From an uncultured virus (IMG/VR IMGVR_UViG_3300012920_000027) (Duplodnaviria; Heunggongvirae; Uroviricota; Caudoviricetes): a stretch of DNA of 64,000 nucleotides. Below, piece by piece: positions 24,193 through 41,279 of this stretch. Below the pieces are notes generated by a model, which made no database searches, had not been told where the DNA came from, and was given only the letters and a program-made list of their open reading frames with translations. Both the position numbers and the translations under genes were made by a program. Numbering within the stretch: position 1 is the first letter of the stretch; the number at the start of each line of letters is the position of its first letter. The stretch lies in IMG/VR virus record IMGVR_UViG_3300012920_000027. One strand, written 5' to 3'.

Positions 24193-24915
24193 ATGGACGA
24201 TTGGGCAAAACGCTTCATGCCAAACCCTGCGACGGAGGCAAAAGAAGAGGTGCCCTACGAGGACCCTGCGCCTCAGCCACCCATTCCTGCACCTGAACCG
24301 ACACCGACTCCGGTTGAGGAGACTCTGTCTTCCGCCATGCCACACATTCAAGAAATCGTAAGGCAGCAGGCTGTCCTCATGTCTGCCCTGGACATCATTC
24401 GAAACGATCTCAAGCTCAACGACAACAACCACAATCAAACACTTCTGGCTTTGACCGAGGTGATCGCCCAGCTCAATTCAAGGGTTGATGCCCTCCAGGG
24501 AGCCATGATTCGCAAGTTGGGTCAGTTGGAGTTTGCTCTGCAGCAACCTCCACCCGAACCCATGACGAACATCATGGAGGTTGCTCCTGAGCTTGTCGAC
24601 GAAATCCGAACGGAATTGTCCAATGTAGAGAATGCAGAGCCCGACATACCGCCGATTAGGGATGTGAACCCACACGGCTACCATGTAAAGAAACATCCCG
24701 AGGATGTGCTTGGAGGTGTTAAGAGGAGCGAGGAAGATGAAGGACCGACAATCCATGACCTCGTACAAGGCGTGCCTGCTGAAATCCTCGAATCGTATCA
24801 TGCATGGAAGCATGGTGGAGCCTCCAACGGATGGCATGACTTCATGCGTGTCTGCAAGGGACCCAAAGAAGCCAAACGCTTCAAGGAACTCATTGAGGAA
24901 CAGCTTGGCTTGTAG
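24193..24915 (+). CDS. Hypothetical protein with central coiled coil
   Basis: Start MDDWAKR. Confidence 0.7.
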   Translation: MDDWAKRFMPNPATEAKEEVPYEDPAPQPPIPAPEPTPTPVEETLSSAMPHIQEIVRQQAVLMSALDIIRNDLKLNDNNHNQTLLALTEVIAQLNSRVDALQGAMIRKLGQLEFALQQPPPEPMTNIMEVAPELVDEIRTELSNVENAEPDIPPIRDVNPHGYHVKKHPEDVLGGVKRSEEDEGPTIHDLVQGVPAEILESYHAWKHGGASNGWHDFMRVCKGPKEAKRFKELIEEQLGL

Positions 24916-24920
24916 CCACC

Positions 24921-24929
24921 GTTAAACGG
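24921..24929 (+). promoter_or_regulatory. Putative TATA-like box GTTAAACGG
   Basis: 30 nt upstream of ATG 24951; the same 9-mer lies 29 nt upstream of the convergent gene at 27696. Confidence 0.55.
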
Positions 24930-24950
24930 TTGGCCGCCATAGCCCGCACC

Positions 24951-27476
24951 ATGGCGGAAGACCTCGTCCAGTACCACCTGGACACGCTAAGGGAGGCTAG
25001 GGATTCGTCTGCTCACTCCCTCGTCAATGACCGCCAATTGCTGATCGTCGCAGAGATGCTTGGTAGCATCGACCCAACGACTGGCCAACCTCGAGGCAAG
25101 CGCTACCTTCCCAAAGAACTCACATCAAAGCAAGCTAAGGACATCCTTGATGGGATCCAAAAGAACACCAAGGCAGATGCGATTAGCCCAGGAGAGGCGG
25201 TGGGAGTCATCGCTGGTCAATCAATTGGCGAGCCCTTCACACAGGCCATCATGCGAACTTTCCACTATGCCGGTGTCGCATCCACCATATCGCCCGAACA
25301 AAGCCTCACAGATGCTGTTGGACACCACGAAAACCACAACCACTCCATTTGCCTTGCTTTGAGGGGCGATCATGGCATGGACTTCCGTATGGCCCAGAGA
25401 GTCAACAACAAGCTTCAACGCTTCATGCTTGGCAAGTTTGTCGAAGTCACCATCGAACATGCAAATTCGGACAAAGTGGCTCGCTTGGCTGCCCTCGAGA
25501 ATTTGATTCATGAATTTGAAGGGGACCGTTACCAAACCTCTGAGCGGTACAGCGAGATGCTCGAGGAAATGGTCACTGTCTACGGTGATCCCACCCTTGA
25601 GTTTGGGGCATTGCTTGACGAAGCGCAGGTTCTTCGTCAAGAACTCAGGGATGAAGCGTCTGTGTTGAGTGATTCTCGAACCCTTCGCTTTTCATTCAAA
25701 TCGGATGAGATGGCGGTTGATTTGAACACCAATAGGTTGCGTGAACTTGAGCACGGTTGGACTGAGGAAGAGTTCGGTTCAATCGCGTCATGGTCCGAAG
25801 GTATGCCCATGCCAAAGCTCAAGCCAGAGATGGACATGTCCAATTTGCGTTCAATCCTCACAAGGATCATGATGACGACCAGAGGGAAGTACAAGAGCGT
25901 CACAGGTATGCCTGGATTTTACGAATCTGTTCGTTTCTTTGATGCAGATAACGGAGATCTGCTCGTGCGCTATCCACAAATCACCTACACACATCTCGTC
26001 GACCTCGCAGAACTTCTGCCTACGCTGCAGATTTGTGCCGGTTGTTACAGCGCATTGAAGGCATTCAAGCTTGAGCCGAATCGAGACATTGGCGGGAAAG
26101 TTGGGAAGGTCACAGGCGATCTCACACAAGATTTGGATTTCGACATCACGAAGGTCGAGAAATACTTGCGAGAGATTCTCGACGACCCGACATCGAAGAC
26201 AGACATCAAGCAGAACCCTCCCGCAGAAAACCCGACTATCTACAAGAAGCGATTCACACTCCAAGAGGTGAGCTACGATCGGTGCTGCCAAGAATGCGGA
26301 GGCGGTTGGTGGAACATAAGCACGGCTTTGCTTCAAGTCGGTGGTTCCGACTACACCGAAGATTGGGCCACGGCAATCAAGACGCCTGAACAGCACGACT
26401 ACGCCATCATGACGGACACTCATTTGCAGTTCATGGGCGACGACCCCACGAACCCAGAGTCGTGGGACGCTTCAGAGCGAATGGCTCAAATCATGGTTCA
26501 ATGGCCCTACAGTCGCCCGGGCGCTGTTTCGGACATGCCGATGGTGTACAATCACTCCGGTTTGATTCCATTGACGCCTGATCGTGGGGAATACTTCATC
26601 ATCGCACGCTATGACAAACCTGAACTTCTCAAAGAGACGAAGTGGAGCCAGTCAAAGAGGTCCAACAAACCCCCTGGACACTTCGCAAACGCCAAGACGA
26701 TGCCGGAGGTGGATTTCTACCGTAGTTCAACAAATGATGTTCACCAGACTCATGCGAACCTCGGAATAGAGGCTGCTCGGACCGTGCTCCTTCAGAATCT
26801 CTACGCAACCCTGTCCGGTGGGAAGAGGCTTGCAGGTTCTGACTCGCACATTGACCTTGCTCACTATGCCCTTCTCGCTGATACGATGACGCACGGACCG
26901 TCAATCATTGGAGCTCCAACTGGAACCGCCAGTCGCAAAGGTGCCGCAGCCACCAAGGGCGGAGGAAATGCAGTTCTCGCGGTGGCTTACGAGCAGGAAG
27001 TCAAGGTCATTTTCGATGCCGCCGCAAGAAACATTCGTGACCCTCTTGAGTCGCCCAAAAGCGCTCAAATCGCTGGTGTACCACCACGGATGGGCTCTGG
27101 CATGATAACGGAAACGGGCCGTTTCTCTGAAACCATGAGTTTGGACTTGGAGAACGCTAAGAGGGTCGTGCGAATGATGGCTGATGAATTGCAACACATC
27201 TCCGTGAACCTGGGTTATGCGTACTTCACTACGGAGGATCAACTGGGCGTGCTTCAGTTGGACCTACCCGATCAAGGAATACCGATGCCTGAGGTCACCC
27301 GTAGGCAACTTCAGAGCAGGAAGGACGAACTCATGCAAGATCCAATGTTCAACGATGCGCTTGAGGCGTACCAAGGAGCTCTTGCTGACCTTCAGGACAT
27401 TTTGATGGAAACCTTCGATGAGAAGGGGAGACCCTCCAAGGGATCAACTCACTTCAAAGCAAGCCGCGCTTTGTGA
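24951..27476 (+). CDS. rpoA2: Divergent archaeal DNA-directed RNA polymerase subunit A'' (Rpo1C/RpoA2) with large insertions
   Basis: PGEAVGVIAGQSIGEPFTQAIMRTFHYAGVA trigger loop; TNDV...LGIEAAR; HYALLADTMT; AYEQEVKVIFDAA...DPL...IAGVPPRMGSG. Confidence 0.9.
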   Translation: MAEDLVQYHLDTLREARDSSAHSLVNDRQLLIVAEMLGSIDPTTGQPRGKRYLPKELTSKQAKDILDGIQKNTKADAISPGEAVGVIAGQSIGEPFTQAIMRTFHYAGVASTISPEQSLTDAVGHHENHNHSICLALRGDHGMDFRMAQRVNNKLQRFMLGKFVEVTIEHANSDKVARLAALENLIHEFEGDRYQTSERYSEMLEEMVTVYGDPTLEFGALLDEAQVLRQELRDEASVLSDSRTLRFSFKSDEMAVDLNTNRLRELEHGWTEEEFGSIASWSEGMPMPKLKPEMDMSNLRSILTRIMMTTRGKYKSVTGMPGFYESVRFFDADNGDLLVRYPQITYTHLVDLAELLPTLQICAGCYSALKAFKLEPNRDIGGKVGKVTGDLTQDLDFDITKVEKYLREILDDPTSKTDIKQNPPAENPTIYKKRFTLQEVSYDRCCQECGGGWWNISTALLQVGGSDYTEDWATAIKTPEQHDYAIMTDTHLQFMGDDPTNPESWDASERMAQIMVQWPYSRPGAVSDMPMVYNHSGLIPLTPDRGEYFIIARYDKPELLKETKWSQSKRSNKPPGHFANAKTMPEVDFYRSSTNDVHQTHANLGIEAARTVLLQNLYATLSGGKRLAGSDSHIDLAHYALLADTMTHGPSIIGAPTGTASRKGAAATKGGGNAVLAVAYEQEVKVIFDAAARNIRDPLESPKSAQIAGVPPRMGSGMITETGRFSETMSLDLENAKRVVRMMADELQHISVNLGYAYFTTEDQLGVLQLDLPDQGIPMPEVTRRQLQSRKDELMQDPMFNDALEAYQGALADLQDILMETFDEKGRPSKGSTHFKASRAL

Positions 27477-27696
27477 GCTTCTTGACTGAATGTGCGGCTT
27501 TGGCCTTTGCCTTGGATTTCTTAGGAAGAGCCTTCTTCTCCGCATTCTTGCGAGGTTTTTCCACGGTCTTCGGACCTTCCTCTCCCTCGACATTTCGTGG
27601 GACTTCGTACTCTCCAGCCTTGAATTTAGCCCAGAGTTCTGAGATTTCGGATTGTGCCCTGCCAGCGTGGGCTTTACGGAATGCATTCCAGCGCAT
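27454..27696 (-). CDS. Small Lys-rich basic protein, probably nucleic-acid binding
   Basis: 80 aa with a Lys-rich tail and its own GTTAAACGG box. Confidence 0.65.
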   Translation of the reverse strand: MRWNAFRKAHAGRAQSEISELWAKFKAGEYEVPRNVEGEEGPKTVEKPRKNAEKKALPKKSKAKAKAAHSVKKLTKRGLL

Positions 27697-27725: not shown

Positions 27726-27939
27726 CGCATTGCAAGATGGAGGTGGCAAAAATGGGGACGCGCCCTGGCGGGCGCTGCAAGTTGGTTTTGGCCGCAAAGC
27801 GGCCCCCCGAGGCAGGTTGCTTCGGGGGGTGAGCGGTCTTTTCATCTGTCTTGATTGCGCAGTCACGGCACCGATCTCCATTCTTCGAGAAATGGAGCAT
27901 TTTGTTCCGTCCGCAGATCACACAAGTACCTCTTGGCAT
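27721..27939 (-). CDS. Small Zn-finger protein (array)
   Basis: Motif-linked ATG; CVIC...CRDC; the 3' part overlaps the hairpins. Confidence 0.6.
   Translation of the reverse strand: MPRGTCVICGRNKMLHFSKNGDRCRDCAIKTDEKTAHPPKQPASGGRFAAKTNLQRPPGRVPIFATSILQCG
27748..27830 (-). ncRNA. Three-hairpin element at the distal end of the array (small RNA or terminator)
   Basis: Follows an ATG-less ACCGCTC; stems CCCCCCGA/TCGGGGGG, GGCCGC/GCGGCC and GCGCCC/GGGCGC, then TTTTT. Confidence 0.5.
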
Positions 27940-27945
27940 GAGCGG

Positions 27946-28089
27946 TCATTCGTCTTCATCACCATCAAGCTCGCGTAGGTACGCGCCTATGTTGCTGATG
28001 TTGGTGATGAGTTGCCAATCCTCAGCTCCACGGCTGATGATTTTTGCATGTTCGATGAGTTCTTCGACTACTTGTTTTCGAGTCTTCAT
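27946..28089 (-). CDS. Hypothetical 47-aa protein (array)
   Basis: Motif ATG to motif TGA, in frame; MKTRKQVVEELIEH... Confidence 0.7.
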   Translation of the reverse strand: MKTRKQVVEELIEHAKIISRGAEDWQLITNISNIGAYLRELDGDEDE

Positions 28090-28096
28090 GAGCGGT

Positions 28097-28387
28097 TCAT
28101 TCAACGATGCGGTAGGTCATTTTCAATCGACCTTCCCATGTTGTGATGGTGAATTCGTTCCCATTGAAAGAGAGTTCCTTTGCTTTCGGTATGTCCAACC
28201 AAGACACTGTGCCGTCCTCTGGACTTTGGAGAGCCCAAGATTTCGTCTGCACCTTCACAATTGTTCTCACACCTGAAGGGTGAGGCGGGCAACTCACTTC
28301 AACGCCGTTATCGATGTTGATGTGTTTTGTCTTTTCGATTTGCGTACCTACTTGGATTGTTCGTTTCAAATCTGCAAGTGTTTTCAT
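28097..28387 (-). CDS. Hypothetical protein (array)
   Basis: Motif-linked ATG. Confidence 0.75.
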   Translation of the reverse strand: MKTLADLKRTIQVGTQIEKTKHINIDNGVEVSCPPHPSGVRTIVKVQTKSWALQSPEDGTVSWLDIPKAKELSFNGNEFTITTWEGRLKMTYRIVE

Positions 28388-28508
28388 GAGCGGATTCGTC
28401 CTCCTTGCAGGCTCCTTTCCAGCCACAGCAAGAACAACAGACACACATTGACTCTCCGCCAGGAGAGCTCTCTGCACCACAGGTGCAAGGGAAGGTCTTC
28501 TTCTTCAT
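28308..28508 (-). CDS. Cys-rich hypothetical protein (array)
   Basis: Motif-linked ATG; reads through the next motif. Confidence 0.55.
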   Translation of the reverse strand: MKKKTFPCTCGAESSPGGESMCVCCSCCGWKGACKEDESAHENTCRFETNNPSRYANRKDKTHQHR

Positions 28509-28515
28509 GAGCGGT

Positions 28516-29136
28516 TCATTGTTCGAGCCAGTGGTGTAGGTGATGGTGTTTCCGGAGTTCGTCTTGCGTCCATTCTTCCCAGCATAAGCCGGCACCGATG
28601 GACAACACCTTGACTTCCTGGCCTTCAATCGTAATCGTGGCCATGTCTTCAAGGCTCCTGGACCATTCATCTTCGACCGTTCCATCGTGGGTCTCGACCC
28701 ATCGGAAGGTTCCATCCTCCCAACTTACATCGTATCCGTAGTCTCCCTCTATTGCGTTGAAGTACTCGCATACGGCATCAAGTTGGTCAAGCGGGAAGCT
28801 GGGCGTTGCCCATCCGTTCCATCGGTCAGCGCCATTCTTTTCTGTTCCCAGGAGGTATCCGTAGGCAACAGGTCGATCGCTGAAACCGATGGGGACAAGT
28901 CGATAGCCCCCGAAGTTGGTTTCAATGTAGTCGATGGCTGATGCCCAGATCTTCGTACGGAATACGATGGCTGAATCTCTCAAGCGACAGGCAAAGCCGC
29001 CACCGGCTGGAAACGCCTTGGTGGTGCCTTGTTTGTCTTTCCTCAATTCGCGAGGGATTCGGTCAAAGCTCTCATCCCAATTGACGGCTAGTGTGTCTGT
29101 GCTGTACAGGTTTCCTGTTTTCGTAACAAGGTACAT
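28516..29136 (-). CDS. Hypothetical protein (array)
   Basis: Motif-linked ATG; contains WNGWATPSF. Confidence 0.75.
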   Translation of the reverse strand: MYLVTKTGNLYSTDTLAVNWDESFDRIPRELRKDKQGTTKAFPAGGGFACRLRDSAIVFRTKIWASAIDYIETNFGGYRLVPIGFSDRPVAYGYLLGTEKNGADRWNGWATPSFPLDQLDAVCEYFNAIEGDYGYDVSWEDGTFRWVETHDGTVEDEWSRSLEDMATITIEGQEVKVLSIGAGLCWEEWTQDELRKHHHLHHWLEQ

Positions 29137-29143
29137 GAGCGGT

Positions 29144-29389
29144 TCAAACCTCTGCCACCCAGGGCGGCCAATCTTTGTTCGTGAAGTACAGTTCACGGTC
29201 AAAGTAGCCACATCCGAGTTCCACTTGCATCACATTCGCGTCTCCAACGATTTCTTCAACAGTGATCGTTGCTCCGGATTGCTGTTTCCACTTGGCCCAC
29301 ATTTGTCCCAGTAGGTCAAGGGCGTGTTGTTCTGTTTCCCCGTAGGCTTCGAGTTCGTAGTTTCTGGTTTCAGTCCAGGCTTTCCACAT
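29144..29389 (-). CDS. Hypothetical protein (array)
   Basis: Motif-linked ATG. Confidence 0.75.
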   Translation of the reverse strand: MWKAWTETRNYELEAYGETEQHALDLLGQMWAKWKQQSGATITVEEIVGDANVMQVELGCGYFDRELYFTNKDWPPWVAEV

Positions 29390-29397
29390 GAGCGGTT

Positions 29398-29709
29398 TCA
29401 ACCCCATTCTTCAGGGTTCTTGTAGCCACAAGCCTTCAAGGCCTCTGCCAAGCCTTCTCTCGTGAAGACGAAGTGCCCCAGTCTGGGGGCAGGTTGGCCA
29501 TGGGGGCCATCGTCACCGAAAACCGTCAGTACCATGTCTTTGTACTGAATTGAAGCTGTTTCGCCAGACATTCCAGCGAATTCCCAGTAATAAGTGTCGC
29601 CCCAATAGTACTTGTTGGGAAACATTGGTAAGATCAGTTGGCTAACAATTGCTTTCAAGCATGAGTCATCTTGATGTTCTATCATCGAGTATGCTGTTTT
29701 CTCTGTCAT
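29398..29709 (-). CDS. Hypothetical protein (array)
   Basis: Motif-linked ATG. Confidence 0.75.
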   Translation of the reverse strand: MTEKTAYSMIEHQDDSCLKAIVSQLILPMFPNKYYWGDTYYWEFAGMSGETASIQYKDMVLTVFGDDGPHGQPAPRLGHFVFTREGLAEALKACGYKNPEEWG

Positions 29710-29716
29710 GAGCGGT

Positions 29717-30844
29717 TCAGGCGATCACCGGAGGTTCGTGGTGGAAGTTGAGGAATTCTTCTGCCGGCGACGATCCTGTTCGAGTCTCGTAGGCCTTCTG
29801 CAGTATTTTCCTGTTCTGGCTGTGGTGATAGCCAGTACTGTTCCATTGTCCGGTGATGTGCTTGTGCAGGGCATCGGGGTCGTCGGCGAGTTCACCGAGC
29901 GTTTGTGCATCACGGTCGAGCTCCCAGATGTTGTGGAGACCTCGTGCCGAGGTGCCGATGGCCTTGTCTGCGCTGAGGGCAGCAAGCATTTCATCGAAGG
30001 TGTAGCCGTTCGCCTTTCCGAAAGGGTAGGTGTCCTCGTCGTGGATTGACCGGAGGTGGGCTTGAGCCCATTCCTTGTCGGTCGTCGACGACGAACCTAC
30101 TCTGATGAAGCGACCAAGGTCTGCTGCCATCAGCTTGCGGGTCATGGCGTTTAGGCGCCAACTGGTTGCATCAACACATTCAGCGCCCAGCATGGTGGCG
30201 ATCTTAGCGGCGTTCATGCCGCCGGCACCAAGAAGGAAGAATTGCTTGTCTTGGGCAAGGAGTCCTTCACTCGTTTCGATAATCACTTGCCACAAGTCCT
30301 CTTTGCGAACGAGGTCGTGGCTTGAGGCATTCTTCGCTGCCCCGATGCGCGACATCACTCGTTGGGTGGATTGGGCAAGGTTTGATCCAAAGCCCACCAT
30401 TCCATCGGTGTTGTAGTTGGTCAAGTGGTCGAGAGCTTCCGTCGCATTCCGTCCGTGAATCACGGGAATGGTCTGCGGGATGGCTGCACTCATCTCATTG
30501 AACCAGGAGCAACTCGTCTGTTGACGGGTCGCAACCTCCTGGGCGCTGAGGTTCGAGAACCTGGGCACAGGAAAGTCGGCTGCGATGATGATGTCGTCTT
30601 TGTTCACTCCGATGCGGTGGTGGCTCTCAATGAGCTCATTCACATCGAATCCGACGGCTGCTTCAGGGTTCTGAAGAAAGTGGAAGCCACCCGAGTCCTT
30701 TGCGACACGGTTCTTGGTCAGCTTCGTGCTGTACCCATCTTCGAGCTTCTCGTCCACGGTGATCAGGATGGTGTCCGTTTGGTTACGGATGTCCATCGGG
30801 CGTCTGCCAATCAGGCAGGCGGTCTCACTGGTGTAATTGTCCAT
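29717..30844 (-). CDS. tRNA-guanine transglycosylase-fold protein (DpdA-like candidate)
   Basis: KDSGGFHF, AADFP, IPVIHG, VGFGS, FLLGAG and GAECVDATSW in TGT motif order. Confidence 0.75.
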   Translation of the reverse strand: MDNYTSETACLIGRRPMDIRNQTDTILITVDEKLEDGYSTKLTKNRVAKDSGGFHFLQNPEAAVGFDVNELIESHHRIGVNKDDIIIAADFPVPRFSNLSAQEVATRQQTSCSWFNEMSAAIPQTIPVIHGRNATEALDHLTNYNTDGMVGFGSNLAQSTQRVMSRIGAAKNASSHDLVRKEDLWQVIIETSEGLLAQDKQFFLLGAGGMNAAKIATMLGAECVDATSWRLNAMTRKLMAADLGRFIRVGSSSTTDKEWAQAHLRSIHDEDTYPFGKANGYTFDEMLAALSADKAIGTSARGLHNIWELDRDAQTLGELADDPDALHKHITGQWNSTGYHHSQNRKILQKAYETRTGSSPAEEFLNFHHEPPVIA

Positions 30845-30853
30845 GAGCGGTGT

Positions 30854-31099
30854 TCAGCCTTTTCTTTCGAAGTAGGCCTCAGCATCTTTGATGATGCAAT
30901 GGTTACATTGGGGCATGCATTCACAACTGTACTGGCAGTCACATTGGACCAGTCCCTTGTACGGTAAATTGAGGACATGGAGCGTCCAGTCCTTTGCTTC
31001 CCTATCTTCGCCACAATCCACACATCCAAGTTCTTCGCCGATCATCTCGACGGCTTGTTCTATGAATTTCTTCCTTTTGTACATTGGAACTCCTGGCAT
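30854..31099 (-). CDS. Cys-rich hypothetical protein (array)
   Basis: Motif-linked ATG; several CxxC/CxC pairs. Confidence 0.7.
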   Translation of the reverse strand: MPGVPMYKRKKFIEQAVEMIGEELGCVDCGEDREAKDWTLHVLNLPYKGLVQCDCQYSCECMPQCNHCIIKDAEAYFERKG

Positions 31100-31106
31100 G
31101 AGCGGT

Positions 31107-31382
31107 TCATTGAGGCATAACCAGATACCAATCGCACCCGACCACATGTGCCATACTGAACAGATGCCCGTAGCCCGGCTCACGCCAGTCTTTCGGGTGT
31201 TCTGGATCGTTGGCCAACATGCGGTACCAGGCATCAAATCGCGCCCAGCTTGATTGGGTGATTCTTGGCAGATCGTCATGCGGGTATTCCGTTTCAAGCT
31301 TGCACGCTGAATTGACGGTCAAGCCGGCTGCTCCCATTCTCGCCTTGATGGCGATGTAGAGGTCTTCTTTGGTAGGTAGCAT
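31107..31382 (-). CDS. Hypothetical protein (array)
   Basis: Motif-linked ATG. Confidence 0.75.
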   Translation of the reverse strand: MLPTKEDLYIAIKARMGAAGLTVNSACKLETEYPHDDLPRITQSSWARFDAWYRMLANDPEHPKDWREPGYGHLFSMAHVVGCDWYLVMPQ

Positions 31383-31389
31383 GAGCGGT

Positions 31390-31695
31390 TCAGTCGTCGA
31401 GGAGACTTGTCTCGAACTCGACGCGACACCATGCCTCCATGATGTACTGGAGGGTCTGGATGATTTCCTTTTCAGTCATTTCCTTGAAGACGATTTTCGT
31501 CGGGGACTCTTTGTACGGCCCCCAAGGGCCACCAAGGGTCACCTGTTCGATGTCTTCATTCATCCAAGGTCCAGACTGATATGTGGCTTCTTCACCATTT
31601 TCCTCAGCAATCCATCGTAGTGGCGATGGGTCGCCGAGGTTGCTGTTCGGCACAATGCTGAAGGTGTACTTTTTTTGTTCAACAAAAACGGTCAT
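31390..31695 (-). CDS. Hypothetical protein (array)
   Basis: Motif-linked ATG. Confidence 0.75.
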   Translation of the reverse strand: MTVFVEQKKYTFSIVPNSNLGDPSPLRWIAEENGEEATYQSGPWMNEDIEQVTLGGPWGPYKESPTKIVFKEMTEKEIIQTLQYIMEAWCRVEFETSLLDD

Positions 31696-31713
31696 GAGCG
31701 GTTTGGCGTCAGG

Positions 31714-32277
31714 TCATCGCTTGGGCAGGTGGTCGGGGTAGTAGTTCACCCAATTGAAAAGTTGGAATAACAACGATTCCTCAAGGCGAGCCCTTACGAT
31801 TGGTTTGTCGTGAAAAATTGGAATGAACTCCATCCCCAGTTCGTACACCTTATCTGTTGTCCACTTTTGGGACTTCCAAAACGGTAGAGACGCTGCACAT
31901 GATCGTGAGCCATTGGGGCGCATGAATTCGTAACCGACGGTCAGCATTCCGTTTGAATAGTACGAGCCCCAAACTCTGAGGCTGTGCTTGCCTTGTTTGA
32001 GTTCAAAAATCTGGAGCTCTTCCTCTTTCGCAAAAATGCCACTACCGATTATGTCCGTACCTTGCTCCATCTCATATGCTTTGATGGCATCTGTCCAGGC
32101 ATCTTGGATCAATCTCCTTCCTTGGCTGTCCCCTTTGTAGGGGACGCCCAAGTATTCGTGGAACTCTGCGCATGTTTCCTGGCGAAGCCAGCTTTGGATT
32201 GCTGCTTCTTGGAGTTCAGCTGTGTTTTCTACGGGTATTTTCGGCTTTGGCCACCCGTTTGCTTCGTGCCATTCCAT
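31714..32277 (-). CDS. Hypothetical protein (array)
   Basis: Motif-linked ATG. Confidence 0.75.
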   Translation of the reverse strand: MEWHEANGWPKPKIPVENTAELQEAAIQSWLRQETCAEFHEYLGVPYKGDSQGRRLIQDAWTDAIKAYEMEQGTDIIGSGIFAKEEELQIFELKQGKHSLRVWGSYYSNGMLTVGYEFMRPNGSRSCAASLPFWKSQKWTTDKVYELGMEFIPIFHDKPIVRARLEESLLFQLFNWVNYYPDHLPKR

Positions 32278-32284
32278 GAGCGGT

Positions 32285-32596
32285 TCATTCGCACAATGGG
32301 CAATCCATTGGTGCGCACGGATCATCAGGATGTTCGGGGCAATACCACCACAATCCAAAGTCTCCGTCTTCAAAGGCGAAGGCTGTGTTGTCCGGTATCT
32401 CCAGGTTTTCGTTGAGCCAAGCAATCGCTTCGTCCGCCATTTCAGGTAGATGGTCTTCATTGATTCCGTTGCCTGGGCCCCAGTCTTCAACCTTGTAACC
32501 TACTTCTTCAGCAAATTCCAGCACCCGTAGCATGTTGTACTCGGCACCGTAAGCTCCATCGAAGTGGCATCCCACATTTTCCAGTGTGAATTTCAT
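32285..32596 (-). CDS. Hypothetical acidic protein (array)
   Basis: Motif-linked ATG. Confidence 0.75.
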   Translation of the reverse strand: MKFTLENVGCHFDGAYGAEYNMLRVLEFAEEVGYKVEDWGPGNGINEDHLPEMADEAIAWLNENLEIPDNTAFAFEDGDFGLWWYCPEHPDDPCAPMDCPLCE

Positions 32597-32603
32597 GAGC
32601 GGT

Positions 32604-32843
32604 TCATTCGTCAGTGACTCGACCCATCAGGGAGTCAAAGTTCCATCCGCAAATGGTTGCGAATACCCTGTTGATCTGGCGTCTTGTGCGGGGCGTGTAA
32701 TCATCCCACTCAAGAGCGAGATTATTGATTGCCCTCACAGCGTCTGGATCCTTTTCGTCCAGGACCGCTTCGACGAATTCATTCCATAGGCCGGTCCACC
32801 AAACATCATTGTCGATGGTTTCAATCAGCTTCTGTCGTTCCAT
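32604..32843 (-). CDS. Hypothetical protein (array)
   Basis: Motif-linked ATG. Confidence 0.75.
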   Translation of the reverse strand: MERQKLIETIDNDVWWTGLWNEFVEAVLDEKDPDAVRAINNLALEWDDYTPRTRRQINRVFATICGWNFDSLMGRVTDE

Positions 32844-32850
32844 GAGCGGT

Positions 32851-33129
32851 TCAATCGGCAAATTGCTCGATTGTCGGGAATTCCCAAGTGCCATCATCGA
32901 TCCATTCGTTGGCCACGATGAGGAAGTCATCGTAGGTACGACCTTGGTCAAATAGATCACCGAACTGATTGATTAGCTTCCATGCGTGCATGATATTGAG
33001 CTTCAGTTCTTCCCACTCACCTTTCGTCGAGTAGCACGCTTCAAACGCTGCTTGGATTGTTTCAGCAATGAGTGTTCTCGCTTCATGAAGCGAGTTCTCG
33101 TGCAGTCTTCCGTTCTTCAGGATGGTCAT
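32851..33129 (-). CDS. Hypothetical protein (array)
   Basis: Motif-linked ATG. Confidence 0.75.
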   Translation of the reverse strand: MTILKNGRLHENSLHEARTLIAETIQAAFEACYSTKGEWEELKLNIMHAWKLINQFGDLFDQGRTYDDFLIVANEWIDDGTWEFPTIEQFAD

Positions 33130-33136
33130 GAGCGGT

Positions 33137-33403
33137 TCAGCTGTGATACCACAGTCGTATTCGGATGTGATCTTCATCAGAGTCAAACGGGACGAGGAAG
33201 ATTCGGGTAATGTCGACCTTCTTTCTCACTCGAGTCTTTCCCTTCGCAGGGTAAATCTCAGATTTACCTTCGATGATGTCCTCGACGATCCACTTCTTGT
33301 AGCGCTTGGGCATATGTAGCAAGTTGTCGCCGAGGATGTCCTTGACCGTCTTTGCGGTCAACACATCACCGATGTTCATGTCGATTGGTTCAATGCGGGG
33401 CAT
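33137..33403 (-). CDS. Hypothetical protein (array)
   Basis: Motif-linked ATG. Confidence 0.7.
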   Translation of the reverse strand: MPRIEPIDMNIGDVLTAKTVKDILGDNLLHMPKRYKKWIVEDIIEGKSEIYPAKGKTRVRKKVDITRIFLVPFDSDEDHIRIRLWYHS

Positions 33404-33429
33404 GAGCGGTGCTAACGGGTGCAGTCGTT

Positions 33430-34200
33430 TCAGTAGTTCCCAAAGAGCCACATGACGGCCTTCTTTTTCTTGCCAAGGTTGTTCCTGGTGACCTTTGGGC
33501 AGTAGTAGCCTTCATCGTTAGTCCAGTCTTCGTAGAACATTGGCTCAGGCGCATCTTTGCATGTGCAACCTGGACCGTCAATGTCCATGAACTCCATCCA
33601 TGGTTTGTTGAAGGTAAAATCCTCCTTGGCCAATTCAACGAGCTCTTCGTACATGTACTCCATCAATGCGCCACTGTCTGCCATCGCCCATTGACGGGCG
33701 ATTTCAATCCAGGGCTCCCAAGAGCCGAGGTCCTCGTAGTACTCCTTGATCAATTCAGGCCAGCCCGATTCATCGGGCGCAAGTCCTCTTGACCATTGGT
33801 AGCGGATCACTCCGGCCATTGCGTCGATAGCGTCTTCCATGAGGTTGTTCGCTTTCTCCATGATGTATCGTTCGGTCACCTCGGGTGATTTCCAATCTTC
33901 ATTCCACAGTACGATGTTGCTGTGATGGGTTTGTCCATCACACCAAGGGCACTTGCAGGTAAGGTTGAATTCGAGGCCGTGGGGTCCGTCGTTGTCGGCA
34001 TCCCATTCAGATTGACTGAACGAGTGTACAGAGAGTTGGGAGACTGGGAGTCGTAGATCGTACTCGTTGTGAGCACATTCCGGGCCAACCCCGAGGTAAA
34101 TCGAGATTGGATCGGTCAGCTTGCGACTGCAAACCCGACATTTCGTAGGTTCGTGTTCGGACAACAGAAAGTTGTCCACCAAAGCGTCGAGTAGCTCCAT
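33430..34200 (-). CDS. DUF6011-like Zn-finger protein (array)
   Basis: CRVCSRKLTDPISIYLGVGPEC; motif-linked ATG. Confidence 0.7.
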   Translation of the reverse strand: MELLDALVDNFLLSEHEPTKCRVCSRKLTDPISIYLGVGPECAHNEYDLRLPVSQLSVHSFSQSEWDADNDGPHGLEFNLTCKCPWCDGQTHHSNIVLWNEDWKSPEVTERYIMEKANNLMEDAIDAMAGVIRYQWSRGLAPDESGWPELIKEYYEDLGSWEPWIEIARQWAMADSGALMEYMYEELVELAKEDFTFNKPWMEFMDIDGPGCTCKDAPEPMFYEDWTNDEGYYCPKVTRNNLGKKKKAVMWLFGNY

Positions 34201-34207
34201 GAGCGGT

Positions 34208-34420
34208 TCATTCGTAGTTGAAGGAATCAAGGTACCTATCTTGAATGATCGTAGAGACCTCAGTCACGGCTTCCTCAATTTTCTTCGCGCCGAGTGTGCT
34301 GTATTCTCCCCAGGTCAGGCGCATTGACTTGTCTTGTCGCCATGTTTCACACAGCAAATCTGCTGCCATTTGCCAGCAATACTTCACTAGATTCCGGTAG
34401 ATTTTCTCATCAGGGGTCAT
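34208..34420 (-). CDS. Hypothetical protein (array)
   Basis: Motif-linked ATG. Confidence 0.75.
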   Translation of the reverse strand: MTPDEKIYRNLVKYCWQMAADLLCETWRQDKSMRLTWGEYSTLGAKKIEEAVTEVSTIIQDRYLDSFNYE

Positions 34421-34427
34421 GAGCGGT

Positions 34428-34730
34428 TCATTCATCGGTCAGTTCCGTCGGTAAGACGCGCCCTTCAAGGGGCTCGACCATGATTCTGAAACCCCTGCGC
34501 TTGATGGTTGCATTCCATTGCAGTTCGGGGTTCAAGAGGTGCGGTGCCTTCTTTCCAAGGGTCACCTCGATAGCTCGGTAGGCGATTTCCCTGATCGTAG
34601 CTTCATTCAGACTTTCCTTGCCGTCGACCATGTCTCTGCATGTGTCCCAGATGTAGGAATGAATCTTCCTGAATAGGTCCCGGGCTTGGCGGTCGTTCAG
34701 TCTCATCGGATTGGTGATGTCGATGTCCAT
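34428..34730 (-). CDS. Hypothetical protein (array)
   Basis: Motif-linked ATG. Confidence 0.75.
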   Translation of the reverse strand: MDIDITNPMRLNDRQARDLFRKIHSYIWDTCRDMVDGKESLNEATIREIAYRAIEVTLGKKAPHLLNPELQWNATIKRRGFRIMVEPLEGRVLPTELTDE

Positions 34731-34737
34731 GAGCGGT

Positions 34738-35151
34738 TCAACCGTGGGCTTCACGGCATTCTTGGTAGTTGAATGTAGGCCTGTAGATGCAGTTTGGATT
34801 CAAGTGATGGACAGTCTTGATGCCATCATCATCTGTTGTGATGAGGCCGAGAGTCCATTTGCCATTGCTGAGGAGCTTCGTGTGGTGGGCGCTGTCGAAA
34901 TGCTTGTAGAAATCAGCATACGACAAGTGCATGTGGGATTTGTACTTGCCCACAATCTTTTGGCATTCGCCTTCCTCAAGGTCTTCAGTCAAATCCAAAC
35001 CTCGTTGATCAAGCCACCGTAGTAGCGATGAGCGATAGCGAAAAGCCGTGTGGCTTGTGGCACCGTCGGTCACGGTGAACTTGTAGCCAATCAGCTTTTG
35101 TCTCTCTTCATCCAAATGGCAGACTCGGAGGCTTGCGAATTCTCGTTGCAT
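34738..35151 (-). CDS. Hypothetical protein (array)
   Basis: Motif-linked ATG. Confidence 0.75.
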   Translation of the reverse strand: MQREFASLRVCHLDEERQKLIGYKFTVTDGATSHTAFRYRSSLLRWLDQRGLDLTEDLEEGECQKIVGKYKSHMHLSYADFYKHFDSAHHTKLLSNGKWTLGLITTDDDGIKTVHHLNPNCIYRPTFNYQECREAHG

Positions 35152-35158
35152 GAGCGGT

Positions 35159-35410
35159 TCAGAGTTTCCACGGGTCGAGTTTGTACCCGTCCTTTCCGAC
35201 GCTTGAATAATGAACATCAGCGTTTGATCCCCAGTATGAAGGCTTGTCGTCAATGACGATCTTCTTTCTGACTGGGTATTCAGGCTGGTTTTCTCGGTAG
35301 AGTTGCATTGTTGCATTCGCTGATTCAGCACATGGTTCAGAGCAAACGGTTTCCCAACCGTGCCGAGCTCCAGTGTAGATTTGAATCTCGTAATAGCGTT
35401 CTCGTGGCAT
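35159..35410 (-). CDS. Hypothetical protein (array)
   Basis: Motif-linked ATG. Confidence 0.75.
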   Translation of the reverse strand: MPRERYYEIQIYTGARHGWETVCSEPCAESANATMQLYRENQPEYPVRKKIVIDDKPSYWGSNADVHYSSVGKDGYKLDPWKL

Positions 35411-35416
35411 GAGCGG

Positions 35417-35509
35417 TCAGTCCTCGAGGACCAAGACGATTTCGTAAATCTCACCGTCCTCATCACAGTAGGCCACTACGGGCGTTGCTTCTCCGTGTCG
35501 TGTTTGCAT
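35417..35509 (-). CDS. 30-aa micro-protein (array)
   Basis: MQTRHGEATPVVAYCDEDGEIYEIVLVLED; motif ATG to motif TGA. Confidence 0.65.
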   Translation of the reverse strand: MQTRHGEATPVVAYCDEDGEIYEIVLVLED

Positions 35510-35516
35510 GAGCGGT

Positions 35517-35711
35517 TCAGCATGAATGGAAGGTCTTGCCGTTGTCGTCGAGCCAATCAATTTCAACTCGCACGGATAGCAGGGTTCCTTCCGCAAGGTG
35601 GCTGACTCTTTCTTCGATCCAAGCGAGGAACTCTTCCTTCGTAATCAAGTCTGTTCCGTCGCCAAACGATAGTCGCGTGCGGCGGCGACGGGGTTCTGTG
35701 TCTGTGGGCAT
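35517..35711 (-). CDS. Hypothetical protein (array)
   Basis: Motif-linked ATG. Confidence 0.7.
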   Translation of the reverse strand: MPTDTEPRRRRTRLSFGDGTDLITKEEFLAWIEERVSHLAEGTLLSVRVEIDWLDDNGKTFHSC

Positions 35712-35718
35712 GAGCGGT

Positions 35719-36156
35719 TCATTCTTCTTCGAGCCTGTCGGCCCAGTACCACGCCAGGAAGTTCTCCGATTGCGTGGCCCATTCTACGACGAATTGAGCA
35801 AATGGCCCCATCATACGGTGTAGGCGATAGTCGCCACGGCCGTAGGCCGGGTAGAATACTTGTTCTCCGAAGTGATGCACGATTTCAGGCGGTAGGCGGC
35901 GGTAAGCTCGCGCGAACCTGATTTTCGCTGCGCGGATCACATTGGTACCTCGAATTCCATTCGGAATCATTCCGAGAAGCTCAACGAGGTAACGCTCTTG
36001 GATTCCTTCCCCTGGGAGCATGTACGGTTCGAGATGGGGTTCTTCAAGTGAATTCATGGCGATTGCTGTCATGAGCGCAAGCGCATCGTGGTGCGCTGCA
36101 TTCTGCCTCCAATCCGCCGTGAGGTCATCCATCATGTTGTAGATGTCTTGTCGCAT
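35719..36156 (-). CDS. Hypothetical protein (array)
   Basis: Motif-linked ATG. Confidence 0.75.
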   Translation of the reverse strand: MRQDIYNMMDDLTADWRQNAAHHDALALMTAIAMNSLEEPHLEPYMLPGEGIQERYLVELLGMIPNGIRGTNVIRAAKIRFARAYRRLPPEIVHHFGEQVFYPAYGRGDYRLHRMMGPFAQFVVEWATQSENFLAWYWADRLEEE

Positions 36157-36163
36157 GAGCGGT

Positions 36164-37108
36164 TCAGACTGGTCCTGTGGAGTCGCCATACGCTCCTGCT
36201 GGAGCCTTCCATGGTTGCGAGCCTTTGAACCCAACCTTCAGGTGGAAGTCGCCAAACACGGAATCGTATGGTGTCCCGTCCTCGATGAGTTCAGGGATTG
36301 ATCTGTTTCGTTTGATCGTTGTTCCGAACTCTCGTTCGTACTTGATGATTTCATCCACCATCCAAGGGTACAAGGAATGGGCGCTTGCCCATTGGTCTGC
36401 GTTTCCAAAGATGCAGGTGAAGCATGAAAGCCTCCCCCAGCCACGGTAGTAGGCAGGATGAGGCACAATGTTCCACCGTTCAAGTGAATCCCATACCATC
36501 TTCTCCGTCCATTCAAGGATCGGTCGATGATGGTCCACGATTCGCCCCTTCTTTTCGGAATGACAGCGATGTCGTTCCAACATGGCGTATGTTTTCCGAT
36601 TGGGGCTTTCTTGACCTCGTTCTCCGGTGATCACGAGGGTTCGGCTATCGTTGAATCGTTCCTGGTTGTTGATGGCGATGCTCATCACATCGATCTTAAG
36701 TGCTGCGCTGCACCACCTGGTCCGGAGACTGGCTGAGACTTGAGGGAACTTCATCCGAGTCCCAAGGGGGCCACTCTTGCCGCCAGCAGAACCGACCGAT
36801 CCATCGGGGTTCTGCCATCTGACGGGAGCTGTCCTTTGGTTGTCTCGGAGCATCTCACGCTTGAAACCTCCTTCACGCCAGCTGAAGTACAGCGGGACGC
36901 CAAAGTGTTCAGCGAATCGGATGCAGTAAGGCTCAGTTTCGGGCCAATCCATGAAAGGAGTGCTTCCAGGCTCACCGTCAATGAGGTGGTGCCAAAGCTC
37001 AATCCGTTCACGGTCTGCCCCCTCTTCCAGTAGGTGCAATAAGCAGGCGGTCGAGTCTTTGCCTCCGCTAAAGGCGACAATGATTCGATCGTAACTGTTG
37101 TAGTTCAT
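36164..37108 (-). CDS. PAPS reductase-family (PP-loop) protein
   Basis: VAFSGGKDS, RWCSAALK, GERGQESPNR, RPILEW and HPAY..GWGRLSCFTC motifs. Confidence 0.88.
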   Translation of the reverse strand: MNYNSYDRIIVAFSGGKDSTACLLHLLEEGADRERIELWHHLIDGEPGSTPFMDWPETEPYCIRFAEHFGVPLYFSWREGGFKREMLRDNQRTAPVRWQNPDGSVGSAGGKSGPLGTRMKFPQVSASLRTRWCSAALKIDVMSIAINNQERFNDSRTLVITGERGQESPNRKTYAMLERHRCHSEKKGRIVDHHRPILEWTEKMVWDSLERWNIVPHPAYYRGWGRLSCFTCIFGNADQWASAHSLYPWMVDEIIKYEREFGTTIKRNRSIPELIEDGTPYDSVFGDFHLKVGFKGSQPWKAPAGAYGDSTGPV

Positions 37109-37122
37109 GAGCGGTCTTCAGT

Positions 37123-37281
37123 TCACTTGTTGCGACGCTGAAATCTGTAGTCGTGGGATGTAAATCCCATGGTGTTTTGATGCACATCCTCGCGGGTGTT
37201 GCCGTTCCAGCGCATCTGGTACGGGCTAACAAATCCGTGGCGCTTCCAAGGGCTTCGTCGGGTCAAACCTAGGTTTTTCAT
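37123..37281 (-). CDS. 52-aa basic protein (array)
   Basis: Motif-linked ATG; MKNLGLTRRSPWKRHG... Confidence 0.6.
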   Translation of the reverse strand: MKNLGLTRRSPWKRHGFVSPYQMRWNGNTREDVHQNTMGFTSHDYRFQRRNK

Positions 37282-37289
37282 GAGCGGTA

Positions 37290-37676
37290 TCAGTCCTGCT
37301 GTTGAAATCCAGGAATCTGTGGTTCAATCGGCAGTTCAAGGGTGTATTCTCTGCTCTTGGCGTAGTCGAATGCAAACCGGAAGTCGGTCGTCAATTCGGA
37401 GTATTCGCAAACCCAAAGGACGCCTTCTGAATCGACGATGCTGATTGGGTTACCTTTGTCTTGAAAGGTAATGTCTTCAAGCGTCCAAAAGGGCTTCAAT
37501 GGAGGGCAGGCTCGAGAAAATGAATGCTGGCCAATAAGGCCATCGGGCATTTTCGGGTCTTCTCTTCGTAGCCTGAAGACCAATTGGCCCTGTTTTTGGC
37601 ATTTCAAGAAGGTTTCAGCTGTCTCTTCATCGTAGTCGAATTCTGACCACTTTCCACGGTACTTGTGTCGTGTCAT
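37290..37676 (-). CDS. Hypothetical protein (array)
   Basis: Motif-linked ATG. Confidence 0.75.
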   Translation of the reverse strand: MTRHKYRGKWSEFDYDEETAETFLKCQKQGQLVFRLRREDPKMPDGLIGQHSFSRACPPLKPFWTLEDITFQDKGNPISIVDSEGVLWVCEYSELTTDFRFAFDYAKSREYTLELPIEPQIPGFQQQD

Positions 37677-37683
37677 GAGCGGT

Positions 37684-38190
37684 TTATTCCTTCTTTCTGA
37701 AGGTACGAATTTTGCGGGTTGAGATCCCCACGGATTTTTCCGCAAGTTCCCCCCATTCGGGGCAGGTTGCGCCGTGTTTCAAGTTCATGAGGATGTACGA
37801 ATTGATGTAAGCGAAGTAATTCGTCTGCATCACAAGGTCGTAGAAAGCTTCAGTTCCAGCTTCTTCCACCCAATCCACAATCGGTTGCCATTGTTGTTGA
37901 AGTTTGACTCGATTCTCATCGAGGTATTCCTTGTACATGTCTCTGCCTTTCCATGGACTCGGTCTCCCACAGGGGAGCATGTCTCCATTCTTGGCGGCGG
38001 CTTCTGATTCTTGGATGTCGTTCCATTGCTGGTCAGTGAAACCTGAGGTTTCGTAGTCCAGCCCGTCTGTCCATGTCTTGCCGACAATGATTGCGGCAGC
38101 GGCGTGTCCGATGTGCTTGATTGCACATTCATCACGGTCGCCTGTACGCCAAATCGTGTCCAACAGAGAGGTCATCGTTTCTATGTTCAT
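37684..38190 (-). CDS. Hypothetical protein (array)
   Basis: Motif-linked ATG. Confidence 0.75.
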   Translation of the reverse strand: MNIETMTSLLDTIWRTGDRDECAIKHIGHAAAAIIVGKTWTDGLDYETSGFTDQQWNDIQESEAAAKNGDMLPCGRPSPWKGRDMYKEYLDENRVKLQQQWQPIVDWVEEAGTEAFYDLVMQTNYFAYINSYILMNLKHGATCPEWGELAEKSVGISTRKIRTFRKKE

Positions 38191-38197
38191 GAGCGGG

Positions 38198-38551: not shown

Positions 38552-38590
38552 GAGCGGTGAGATGTGCTTCAGCCATTCAAGGGCTTCGCA

Positions 38591-38920: not shown

Positions 38921-38927
38921 GAGCGGT

Positions 38928-39284: not shown

Positions 39285-39291
39285 GAGCGGT

Positions 39292-39726: not shown

Positions 39727-39743
39727 GAGCGGTTGGACATGTT

Positions 39744-39968: not shown

Positions 39969-39975
39969 GAGCGGT

Positions 39976-40476: not shown

Positions 40477-40483
40477 GAGCGGT

Positions 40484-41029: not shown

Positions 41030-41044
41030 GAGCGGTCTGATGCA

Positions 41045-41272: not shown

Positions 41273-41279
41273 GAGCGGT

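Follow-up and report, generated by a model that had tools for sequence, protein, structure and literature searches.

A divergent homologue of archaeal RNA polymerase subunit A'' encoded without partner subunits in a family of viruses with heptamer-marked gene arrays

Bacteriophages reprogram the RNA polymerase of their hosts with dedicated factors, such as sigma factors and the AsiA and MotA proteins of T4. The C-terminal part of the largest polymerase subunit can also exist as a separate polypeptide: beta' is split in cyanobacteria and plastids, where rpoC2 carries a large insertion, and the yeast linear plasmid pGKL2 encodes a small subunit corresponding to the C-terminal part of beta'. Among viruses, jumbo phages (phiKZ, AR9), the mReC Caudovirales and giant viruses likewise possess a homologue of this part. 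As described in the available text of one study, the beta' of jumbo phages is split into separate genes (PMC7598289), and the available part of Weinheimer and Aylward 2020 attributes to the mReC Caudovirales complete catalytic sets, with the NADFDG metal loop among their features (PMC7481178). Here we analysed a stretch of 64,000 nucleotides from an uncultured virus of the Caudoviricetes (IMG/VR record IMGVR_UViG_3300012920_000027), referred to below as the window, in which a plus-strand gene at 24951..27476 encodes an 841-amino-acid (aa) protein related to subunit A'' (Rpo1C) of archaeal RNA polymerase. In the cellular enzyme this subunit contributes the jaw, the trigger loop and some of the cleft and clamp. 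The most economical explanation of our data, to which we give a probability of roughly one half, is that the viral protein is assembled into the host RNA polymerase and replaces host A''.

The stop codon of the gene lies at 27474-27476, and its open frame extends over 24930..27476 on the plus strand, giving 848 aa if translation began at a TTG and 841 aa from the ATG at 24951. All relatives begin with MAEDLVQYHL and the TTG at 24930 is not conserved among them, so the ATG at 24951 is the likely start. The protein matched the Pfam family PF04998 (Rpb1 domain 5, RNA_pol_Rpb1_5) with an expectation value (E) of 5.8e-22 and 78.9 bits against a cut-off of 28.5, and its homologues in two complete related genomes, G001 and G007, also scored above that cut-off. 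The best NCBIfam model was TIGR02389 (archaeal rpoA2; E 2.7e-32), with bacterial beta' models far lower; at 112.2 bits the protein fell below the equivalog cut-off of 420.65 and is not an orthologue in that sense. When a profile of 13 family sequences was compared with solved chains, the top matches were archaeal Rpo1C (E 2.1e-46), with eukaryotic Rpb1 at ~1e-32 and bacterial beta' at ~1e-15. Two blocks were aligned, profile positions 46-165 with A'' 30-152 and 572-725 with A'' 252-380. Comparison with 18 cellular A'' sequences by hhalign paired viral residues 545-720 with cellular 235-376 (probability 100, E 4.4e-40), and the cluster of A''-like open reading frames (ORFs) scored 99.9% against a cellular A'' profile. 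By these alignments the window protein is a highly divergent homologue of archaeal A''/Rpo1C. The motifs listed in a preliminary description of the locus (GEPFTQAIMRTFHYAG, LGIEAAR, HYALLADTMT, CAGC and CCQEC) could each be located in the 841-aa translation, and its remark that the protein is much longer than a typical archaeal A'' was borne out, the cellular proteins of our extracted set measuring mostly 357-401 aa and those of Poseidoniales 511-520 aa.

The N-terminal conserved block (residues 55-171; 25113..25463, plus strand, as for all protein segments below) contains the trigger loop and matches cellular A'' 30-152. In the family alignment the first trigger-loop helix (residues 91-109, 25221..25277, SIGEPFTQAIMRTFHYAGV) retained its catalytic Gln, Arg and His residues: S91, E94, Q98, R102, F104, H105, Y106, A107 and G108 were invariant in 13/13 sequences and T103 was present in 12/13. 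The preservation of these ten positions in 12-13 of 13 sequences, across clades that are 24-29% identical, argues for a role at the active site. The segment that follows (residues ~110-133, 25278..25349) is a divergent substitute for the second helix and its anchor and lacks GLPRxIEIxD. The columns G-L-P-R-x-I-E-I-x-D, conserved to at least 90% in 30 cellular A'' sequences, were kept in only 0-4 of the 13 viral ones, which agrees with the earlier observation that the segment after the trigger loop is replaced; the universal GLPR(L/I)xE anchor is thus missing from the viral family. Altogether 99 columns were at least 90% conserved in the 30 cellular sequences. When scored in the 13 viral sequences, 26 of these were kept in at least 12, 17 in 7-11 and 56 in fewer than seven, and the kept columns were concentrated in trigger-loop helix 1, the LGIEAAR helix, H638, D644, G664, G670, L676, E681, D697 and L699.

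The jaw region is expanded in a family-specific manner (residues 172-544, 25464..26582), with ~375-400 residues compared to ~100 in cellular A'', about fourfold. The hundreds of extra residues and the Cys pairs noted previously were therefore present, and both pairs, C362-x2-C365 (CAGC, 26034..26045) and C446-x2-C449 within CCQEC (26286..26297), were invariant in 13/13 family members; together the four cysteines probably form a zinc site. The insert searched alone against PDB sequences returned nothing at E up to 10, and insert plus tail searched alone in Pfam gave only non-significant hints (zinc ribbon, E 0.31). In a language-model search of the ESM Atlas the clusters closest to the insert were those of Rpb1 domain 5/7 (0.90), a lead only. 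The C-terminal conserved block (residues 545-728, 26583..27134), with GEYFI..., LGIEAAR, HYALLADTM and VLAVAYE..., corresponds to cellular A'' 235-376 and is followed by a family-specific tail of 113 aa (residues 729-841, 27135..27473) that has no counterpart in cellular A''. The ratio of nonsynonymous to synonymous substitution rates (dN/dS), calculated over 562 codons against the closest relative, locus L016, came to 0.106 for the whole comparison, with 0.047 for the N-terminal core and 0.147 for the insert, the estimate resting on this one relative because synonymous sites were saturated against the others. The A''-like protein is under purifying selection.

We then asked whether partner subunits accompany the gene. 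The window is syntenic with G001 (127,570 bp, direct terminal repeats, CheckV 100%) at ~67-73% nucleotide identity and spans the equivalent of G001 111.5-127.5 kb plus 1-48 kb, that is, half of its own genome. G007 (128,784 bp, direct terminal repeats, CheckV 100%), located by searching with a conserved 489-aa module protein, belongs to a distant lineage and carries a homologue of 839-844 aa. An IMG/VR scan for [LM]RTFHYAG gave three stretches, two of which encode relatives, namely G001 and G007. Six-frame searches of both genomes with PF00623 (A' catalytic) and PF00562 (B catalytic) gave no match at E up to 10; in the same searches PF04998 was found in both, and all three models matched 14/14 control genomes. 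A Pfam scan of G001 ORFs from 90 aa upwards (147) and of G007 ORFs from 150 aa upwards (84, with four others excluded) revealed no RNA polymerase family beyond PF04998. The DxDGD metal loop was absent from all frames of the window and G007 and from 119.5 kb of related metagenome loci, and in G001 it occurred only in an 85-aa frame. Furthermore, the ORFs of 300 aa or longer in the window, G001 and G007 were all sorted into 38 clusters, and each cluster was set against profiles built from 16 A' and 9 B sequences of cellular origin; hhalign gave at most 7.9% for every cluster, the top score being the zinc ribbon of a transcription factor B (TFB)-like ORF. The pair of double-psi beta-barrel subunits typical of a virus-encoded multisubunit RNA polymerase was accordingly not found, with neither PF00623 nor PF00562 and no DxDGD in long frames. 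Cellular A'' was immediately preceded by an NADFDGD-bearing A' gene in 18/18 loci; no such arrangement was seen in the window, G001, G007 or the related loci. The preliminary description, which had reported a stand-alone subunit with no other polymerase subunit flanking it, was thus correct for the window, and the wider search for Rpo1N and Rpo2 through the two complete relatives yielded no A' or B in either (2/2) and no full polymerase set. A hidden viral core enzyme appears unlikely on these results.

The gene also proved to belong to a family. An exhaustive search of representative proteins returned 2101 matches at E<=0.001, 162 at 1e-10 and 11 at 1e-30; the strong matches were proteins of 824-967 aa or fragments of such, and the cluster members, where named by their source, were 'hypothetical protein', on contigs of up to 127-131 kb. 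A metagenome scan kept 80 loci, of which ten with long viral-type ORFs were inspected (L016-L022, L024, L026, L028); L023, L025 and L027 are short fragments outside this set, L090 is a cellular rpoB-rpoA'-rpoA'' operon, and the remaining kept loci were cellular-type by match length. GTDB species genomes gave 580 matches, of which the best 80 were without exception cellular-type A''. An IMG/VR scan with the single window protein as query gave no match, a profile search of 90% clusters did not recover the distant clades, and in GenBank phage records the A''-like query found only short trigger-loop matches to cellular-type rpoC or RPB1. With the G001 thermosome and the 469-aa and 375-aa ORFs of the window as queries, tblastn found no match in 50,697 GenBank phage records.

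The profile searches and phylogeny proposed earlier against Rpo1C gave an archaeal A'' affinity and one long-branched viral clade. In a tree of 48 rows and 262 columns, restricted to the core blocks, the 13 viral sequences formed a single clade (100/100) with a stem of 1.56 substitutions per site, on the archaeal-eukaryotic side and outside a nine-row Poseidoniales clade (100/100). The viral clade paired with two eukaryotic rows (90/73), a grouping flagged as long branches meeting. Forcing viruses and Poseidoniales into one clade cost 9.28 log-likelihood units and was not rejected by the approximately unbiased test (p-AU 0.122); a recent capture from the sampled Poseidoniales was set aside, since the viral clade is not nested among them. 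On this phylogeny the origin of the family is old, and the gene is an old, vertically inherited viral gene and not a stray host gene. Two database entries look like mis-binned contigs: L115, titled Deltaproteobacteria bacterium, is a Poseidoniales-type rpoB-A'-A'' operon that groups inside the Poseidoniales clade, and P0003, named Candidatus Marinimicrobia bacterium, is a partial viral-type A''-like protein in a Marinimicrobia bin.

Other genes of the complete genomes indicate an archaeal host. A group II chaperonin (thermosome) was found in G001 (87010-88551, minus strand, E 4.9e-107) and in G007 (28242-29744, minus strand, E 1.6e-101), and a PCNA-like gene in G007 (73740-74525, minus strand). 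A TFB-like gene was present in both, at G001 58114-59205 (corresponding to L005:18114-19202 on the plus strand) and G007 116130-117080 (plus strand), in the half of the genome that lies outside the window. Compared with seven archaeal TFBs by hhalign, it scored 95.5% (E 1.4e-8) along 168 columns covering both cyclin repeats; singly, the protein reached 23.0 bits against a Pfam cut-off of 23.6, and a PDB sequence search with it alone gave no match. Moreover, a 2464-aa ORF of G001 (88514-95908, minus strand) combines DUF5824, an ATP-dependent DNA ligase and, at residues ~1329-1363, a TFIIS/TFS-type zinc ribbon that retains the SDE acidic loop. Thermosome, PCNA, TFB-like and TFS-like genes point in the same direction, and the host of the family is apparently archaeal.

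Because neither A' nor B is encoded, the A''-like protein cannot form a polymerase of its own. Taken together, the retention of the catalytic residues and of the block that meets the A' clamp, the purifying selection, the lack of a viral core and the presence of TFB-like and TFS-like parts make assembly with the host enzyme the most economical explanation. Under this explanation, viral A'' would be built into newly made host RNA polymerase in the place of host A''. In the hybrid enzyme the catalytic trigger-loop helix would be normal and the trigger loop anchored anew, the zinc-binding jaw would be four times larger, and an additional tail would extend the C terminus; probably with the viral TFB-like factor and the TFS-like zinc ribbon, this enzyme would serve viral transcription. 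The virus might thereby gain a switch to a viral gene class, tolerance of its probably heavily modified DNA in the downstream-DNA channel, or resistance to a shut-off of the unmodified enzyme. Both the incorporation and any effect on promoter choice are what we infer from the sequences.

Several points weigh against this explanation. The helix-2 anchor is among the 56 of 99 cellular-conserved columns kept in fewer than seven of 13 viral sequences, so it is not certain that the protein fits a host core. Its binding to host A', B and H is a prediction; of the earlier proposal of a swap-in subunit that reprograms host RNA polymerase, the stand-alone A'' without A' or B stands, and assembly with host A' is the presumed part. 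In solved cellular enzymes A'' is deeply interlocked, which makes exchange into finished enzyme unlikely, and the virus would need ongoing synthesis of host subunits. As the window is half of its genome, the absence of other subunits rests on the two complete relatives, and very divergent catalytic subunits without DxDGD could escape every search used. Finally, the viral thermosome is 38% identical to that of Poseidoniales and 35-36% to those of other archaea, values too close to point to one host lineage.

The losses just described would also suit a dominant-negative decoy that captures unassembled host A', B or H, or occupies the position of A'', so that the enzyme is crippled and host transcription shut off. 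The bulky jaw insert and tail could obstruct DNA entry, and there is a precedent in RIP/ORF145 of an archaeal virus, which inhibits host RNA polymerase according to the available text (PMC5123050). A decoy would not need the catalytic residues of helix 1, however, yet ten positions there were kept across deeply diverged clades; a virus without its own polymerase cannot afford to disable all host enzyme, and 841 aa is a costly inhibitor. We regard a decoy as unlikely. Less likely still is an exapted module that has no part in an RNA polymerase core and would serve, for instance with the 240-aa protein encoded next to it or with other viral proteins, in the priming of replication, the handling of DNA or the assembly of virions. 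That neighbour adjoins the gene in every lineage examined, no DNA polymerase or primase was detectable in the complete relatives, and the insert, ~45% of the protein, has no known family, all of which would fit; but the best-kept parts, helix 1, LGIEAAR and the C-terminal cleft/clamp block, are sensible only beside an active site and the A' clamp.

We also considered that the virus might encode a complete multisubunit RNA polymerase, as jumbo phages do, with its A'-like and B-like parts hidden in giant ORFs. G001 and G007 do contain many large ORFs without a family (983-2989 aa), and jumbo-phage RNA polymerases are described, in the part of the source available, as split and divergent (PMC7598289). 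Against this stand the empty PF00623 and PF00562 searches of two complete genomes, the lack of DxDGD in long frames and the low scores of 38/38 ORF clusters against A' and B (<=7.9%). In addition, the A''-like protein itself is easily recognised (99.9% against A''), so equally old partners should be detectable, and we see only a slim chance for a hidden polymerase. The idea that the gene is cellular and sits on a contig wrongly assembled or binned, or that it is a decaying pseudogene, could draw on the Marinimicrobia label of P0003, but it is refuted by an intact frame in at least ten independent contigs with the same viral neighbours, by complete genomes with direct terminal repeats, by a dN/dS of 0.106 in a monophyletic family, and by the cellular-type A'' genes of the best 80 GTDB matches, which lie behind rpoB-rpoA'.

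The A''-like gene lies at the end of an array of ~85 mostly small minus-strand genes (27831..63571), each ATG of which is abutted by the heptamer ACCGCTC. The array starts 355 nucleotides past the stop codon of the A''-like gene and runs towards it. In the window ACCGCTC occurred 91 times against 7.2 expected, a number reached in 0/100 shuffles, and 90 of the 91 copies were on the minus strand, 89 within 27831-63571 and one inside the A''-like gene at 25542-25548. ATG followed directly in 84 of these 90 copies and TGA preceded directly in 40; positions -40 to -8 of heptamer genes showed no composition signal. G001 had 97 minus-strand copies, 87 of them followed by ATG and all of those 87 within 11.4-53 kb. 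Other lineages carried a different heptamer in the same place and orientation: ACTGACC in G007 (73,695-113,876; 67 minus and 4 plus copies, 60 followed by ATG) and in L028 (6 and 0, 5 with ATG), CTACCCA in L024 (8 and 3, 7 with ATG) and ATTGAAC in L026 (7 and 0, 6 with ATG), while ACCGCTC recurred in L018 (22 and 2, 20 with ATG) and L019 (10 and 0, 9 with ATG). The protein tree has five main clades, and the four heptamers fall to four of them, the fifth having no available locus. In G001 and G007 the A''-like gene marks the downstream end of the array, and the divergent TFB-like gene lies just past the upstream end. An IMG/VR scan with the 14-nucleotide pattern TGAACCGCTCATGA found, among the matches listed, multiple copies only in G001 and single, chance-level ones elsewhere, a scan that could not reveal arrays lacking the gene. 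The suggested co-occurrence of the gene with motif arrays was seen in every lineage with enough flanking DNA. Since all loci were found through the A''-like gene or its module and share ancestry, this establishes linkage in one family and not a functional link.

The heptamer is a candidate minimal initiator for leaderless mRNAs or a candidate RNA processing site. A Shine-Dalgarno-like site pairing with rRNA was set aside, as the heptamer differs by lineage and GGAGGTG-type sites precede other genes: such sites were found 5-12 nucleotides before the start of several structural and plus-strand genes (window 3949-4647, 10040-11785, 14786-16195 (-), 22875-23543 (+)), and heptamer genes lack them. 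The jaw of cellular RNA polymerase contacts duplex DNA downstream of the active site. The heptamer occupies -7 to -1 of the start codon, so the earlier idea that the enlarged jaw reads ACCGCTC|R found no support, and the A''-like gene itself has no heptamer. A TFB-like protein or a mechanism at the RNA level fits the position better than a jaw lying over downstream duplex; the TFB-like factor would be the more natural reader of start-site-proximal DNA, and a role of the signal in RNA, as a processing site, is equally conceivable.

It is tempting to combine these elements into a private transcription system in which the swapped-in A'', the viral TFB-like factor and a seven-nucleotide lineage-specific initiator would produce ~60-90 TATA-less leaderless mRNAs. 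The heptamers (ACCGCTC, ACTGACC, ATTGAAC, CTACCCA) would then co-evolve with the viral transcription proteins, as phage polymerases and promoters do. We put this forward tentatively, with the odds against it. If true, it would be the first virus to replace a core catalytic subunit of a cellular RNA polymerase. Thanks to the heptamer arrays and the viral TFB-like gene, the supply of a single core piece by the virus could be put directly to the test with reconstituted transcription systems of archaea.

The gene belongs to a 12-gene module common to lineages that are 25-50% identical. Its order is 489-, 163-, 264- and 60-aa ORFs, RusA (20186-20641 in the window), a 153-aa ORF, an LRAT-like gene, 225- and 222-aa ORFs, RNase H (23745-24176), the 240-aa protein and then the A''-like gene. 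The coiled-coil-like 240-aa neighbour (24193..24915, plus strand) adjoins the A''-like gene in all lineages examined; no family was detectable for it, and the ESM Atlas gave nothing usable (0.78). Directly after the A''-like gene lies a convergent basic ORF of 80 aa (27454..27696, minus strand). Its C-terminal half is lysine-rich, and it may encode a small nucleic-acid-binding protein. Other lineages have a small convergent ORF in the same place, a possible counterpart of the 80-aa ORF.

The A''-like gene is preceded by neither a heptamer nor a GGAGGTG-type site. Instead, a second start-linked element, A[AT]ACG[GA]YTG, often inside TTMAAACGGYTGAAC, was found 25-29 nucleotides before the A''-like ATG in the window, G001 and G007; in the window it takes the form TTAAACGGTTGGCC (24922..24936, plus strand), beginning 29 nucleotides before the ATG. 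TTMAAACGGYTGAAC-like elements of the window lie before non-array genes at 16549-16563, 24165-24179 and 24922-24936 (+) and at 27710-27724 (-), the last upstream of the 80-aa ORF. An ATG that starts an ORF of 50 aa or more lay 25-29 nucleotides downstream for 5/10 matches in the window (starts 16579, 24193, 24951, 27696(-) and 33403(-)), 9/27 in G001 (including the A''-like gene, the 240-aa neighbour and the thermosome) and 2/12 in G007 (including the A''-like gene); start 16579 belongs to the first gene of the plus-strand module. The position of the element would suit a TATA-like box for a leaderless mRNA. Heptamer, upstream element and GGAGGTG-type sites together indicate that one virus uses at least three gene-start contexts. 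In its 3' half (YTGAAC or CTGACC) the element looks similar to the heptamers of three lineages. The upstream element of the A''-like gene is overlapped by an imperfect inverted repeat, GCCACCGTTAAACGGTTGGC, at window 24913-24950; the 60 nucleotides before the ATG had a fold energy of -18.9 kcal/mol, compared to -6 to -14 in relatives, which do not preserve the pairing. Between the structural block and the plus-strand module lies a divergent intergenic region (16196-16578) that is conserved across five relatives. Direct repeats of CCATGTTTCC are present there, as are two GATAAC(A/G)CGA-type elements, and the region may serve as an origin or in regulation.

The window looks like viral DNA, from a marine head-tail virus of roughly 128 kb with archaeal-type accessory genes. 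It also encodes two PAPS-reductase-like genes, a DNA methyltransferase and many ORFs without a family, and no tRNA or Rfam family was found in it. DNA-modification genes are dense within the array (window 36164-37108, 49323-50438, 58607-59506 (-)), comprising two PAPS-reductase/DndC-like genes and an N6/N4 methyltransferase; G001 has a Mom-like gene at 15099-15983 (-) and G007 several C5 and Dam methyltransferases. The complete genomes also encode a resolvase, a Mom-like protein, glycosyltransferases and many DNA methyltransferases. This density of modification genes suggests that the viral DNA may be heavily modified. G001 further contains a terminase-nuclease-like ORF and a virion-protein-like ORF, and next to its 2464-aa ORF a 1611-aa ORF with guanylate kinase and DUF7831. 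Neither G001 nor G007 matched B-family DNA polymerase (PF00136) at E up to 10, and no primase, major capsid protein or portal protein was recognisable in them by Pfam.

Among described virus groups, the nearest statement to the present finding concerns the group D scaffolds of Philosof et al. 2017, which in the available text are defined by a B-family DNA polymerase and said to be without structural genes (PMC5434244). G001 and G007 also carry a thermosome, a resolvase and an A''-like gene. They differ from group D, by description only, in having no PF00136 match and, for G001, in the terminase-nuclease-like and virion-protein-like ORFs; as no B-family polymerase is detectable, they cannot be equated with group D. 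Nor did we find the B-family DNA polymerase and near-complete archaeal replication module of Magrovirales, although the thermosome is present. A virus-encoded stand-alone A'' is not described in the available portions of reports on Poseidoniales viruses (PMC11706807) and a brackish magrovirus (PMC10160649) or of PMC7481178 and PMC5123050, it is absent from the profile of Satyavativiridae (PMC13108676), and the literature searched contained no report of a viral core-subunit homologue built into a host RNA polymerase.

Compared with archaeal Rpo1C (TIGR02389; 8CRO, 4QIW, 2WAQ, 2PMZ), the viral protein has the same two blocks in the same order and shares the helix-1 residues, the LGIEAAR helix and the C-terminal cleft/clamp block. 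Unlike Rpo1C, it lacks the GLPRxxE anchor, has an approximately fourfold jaw with four invariant cysteines and a 113-aa tail, and is encoded by a virus outside the rpoB-A'-A'' operon, in which 18/18 cellular genes reside. Unlike the viral multisubunit RNA polymerases, it is accompanied by no A'/beta' N-terminal part and no B/beta in 2/2 complete genomes, and its affinity is archaeal, not bacterial. With rpoC2 and the pGKL2 subunit it has in common that the C-terminal part of the largest subunit is separate, but their partner subunits share the same genome. Sigma factors, AsiA/MotA and, in the available account, RIP/ORF145 of Acidianus two-tailed virus (PMC5123050) are viral proteins that alter the host core, as proposed here; these factors bind the finished enzyme, whereas a homologue of a core catalytic subunit would need to be built in.

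Two viral strategies are known, the supply of an entire RNA polymerase and the attachment of accessory factors to the host enzyme; supplying one core piece would be a third. The piece in question bears the trigger loop and the jaw and is here conserved for function. If real, the strategy would amount to a natural experiment on the limits within which jaw and trigger-loop anchor can be reshaped. Marine metagenomes contain the family widely, and it represents an undescribed group of viruses of roughly 128 kb, apparently of archaea.

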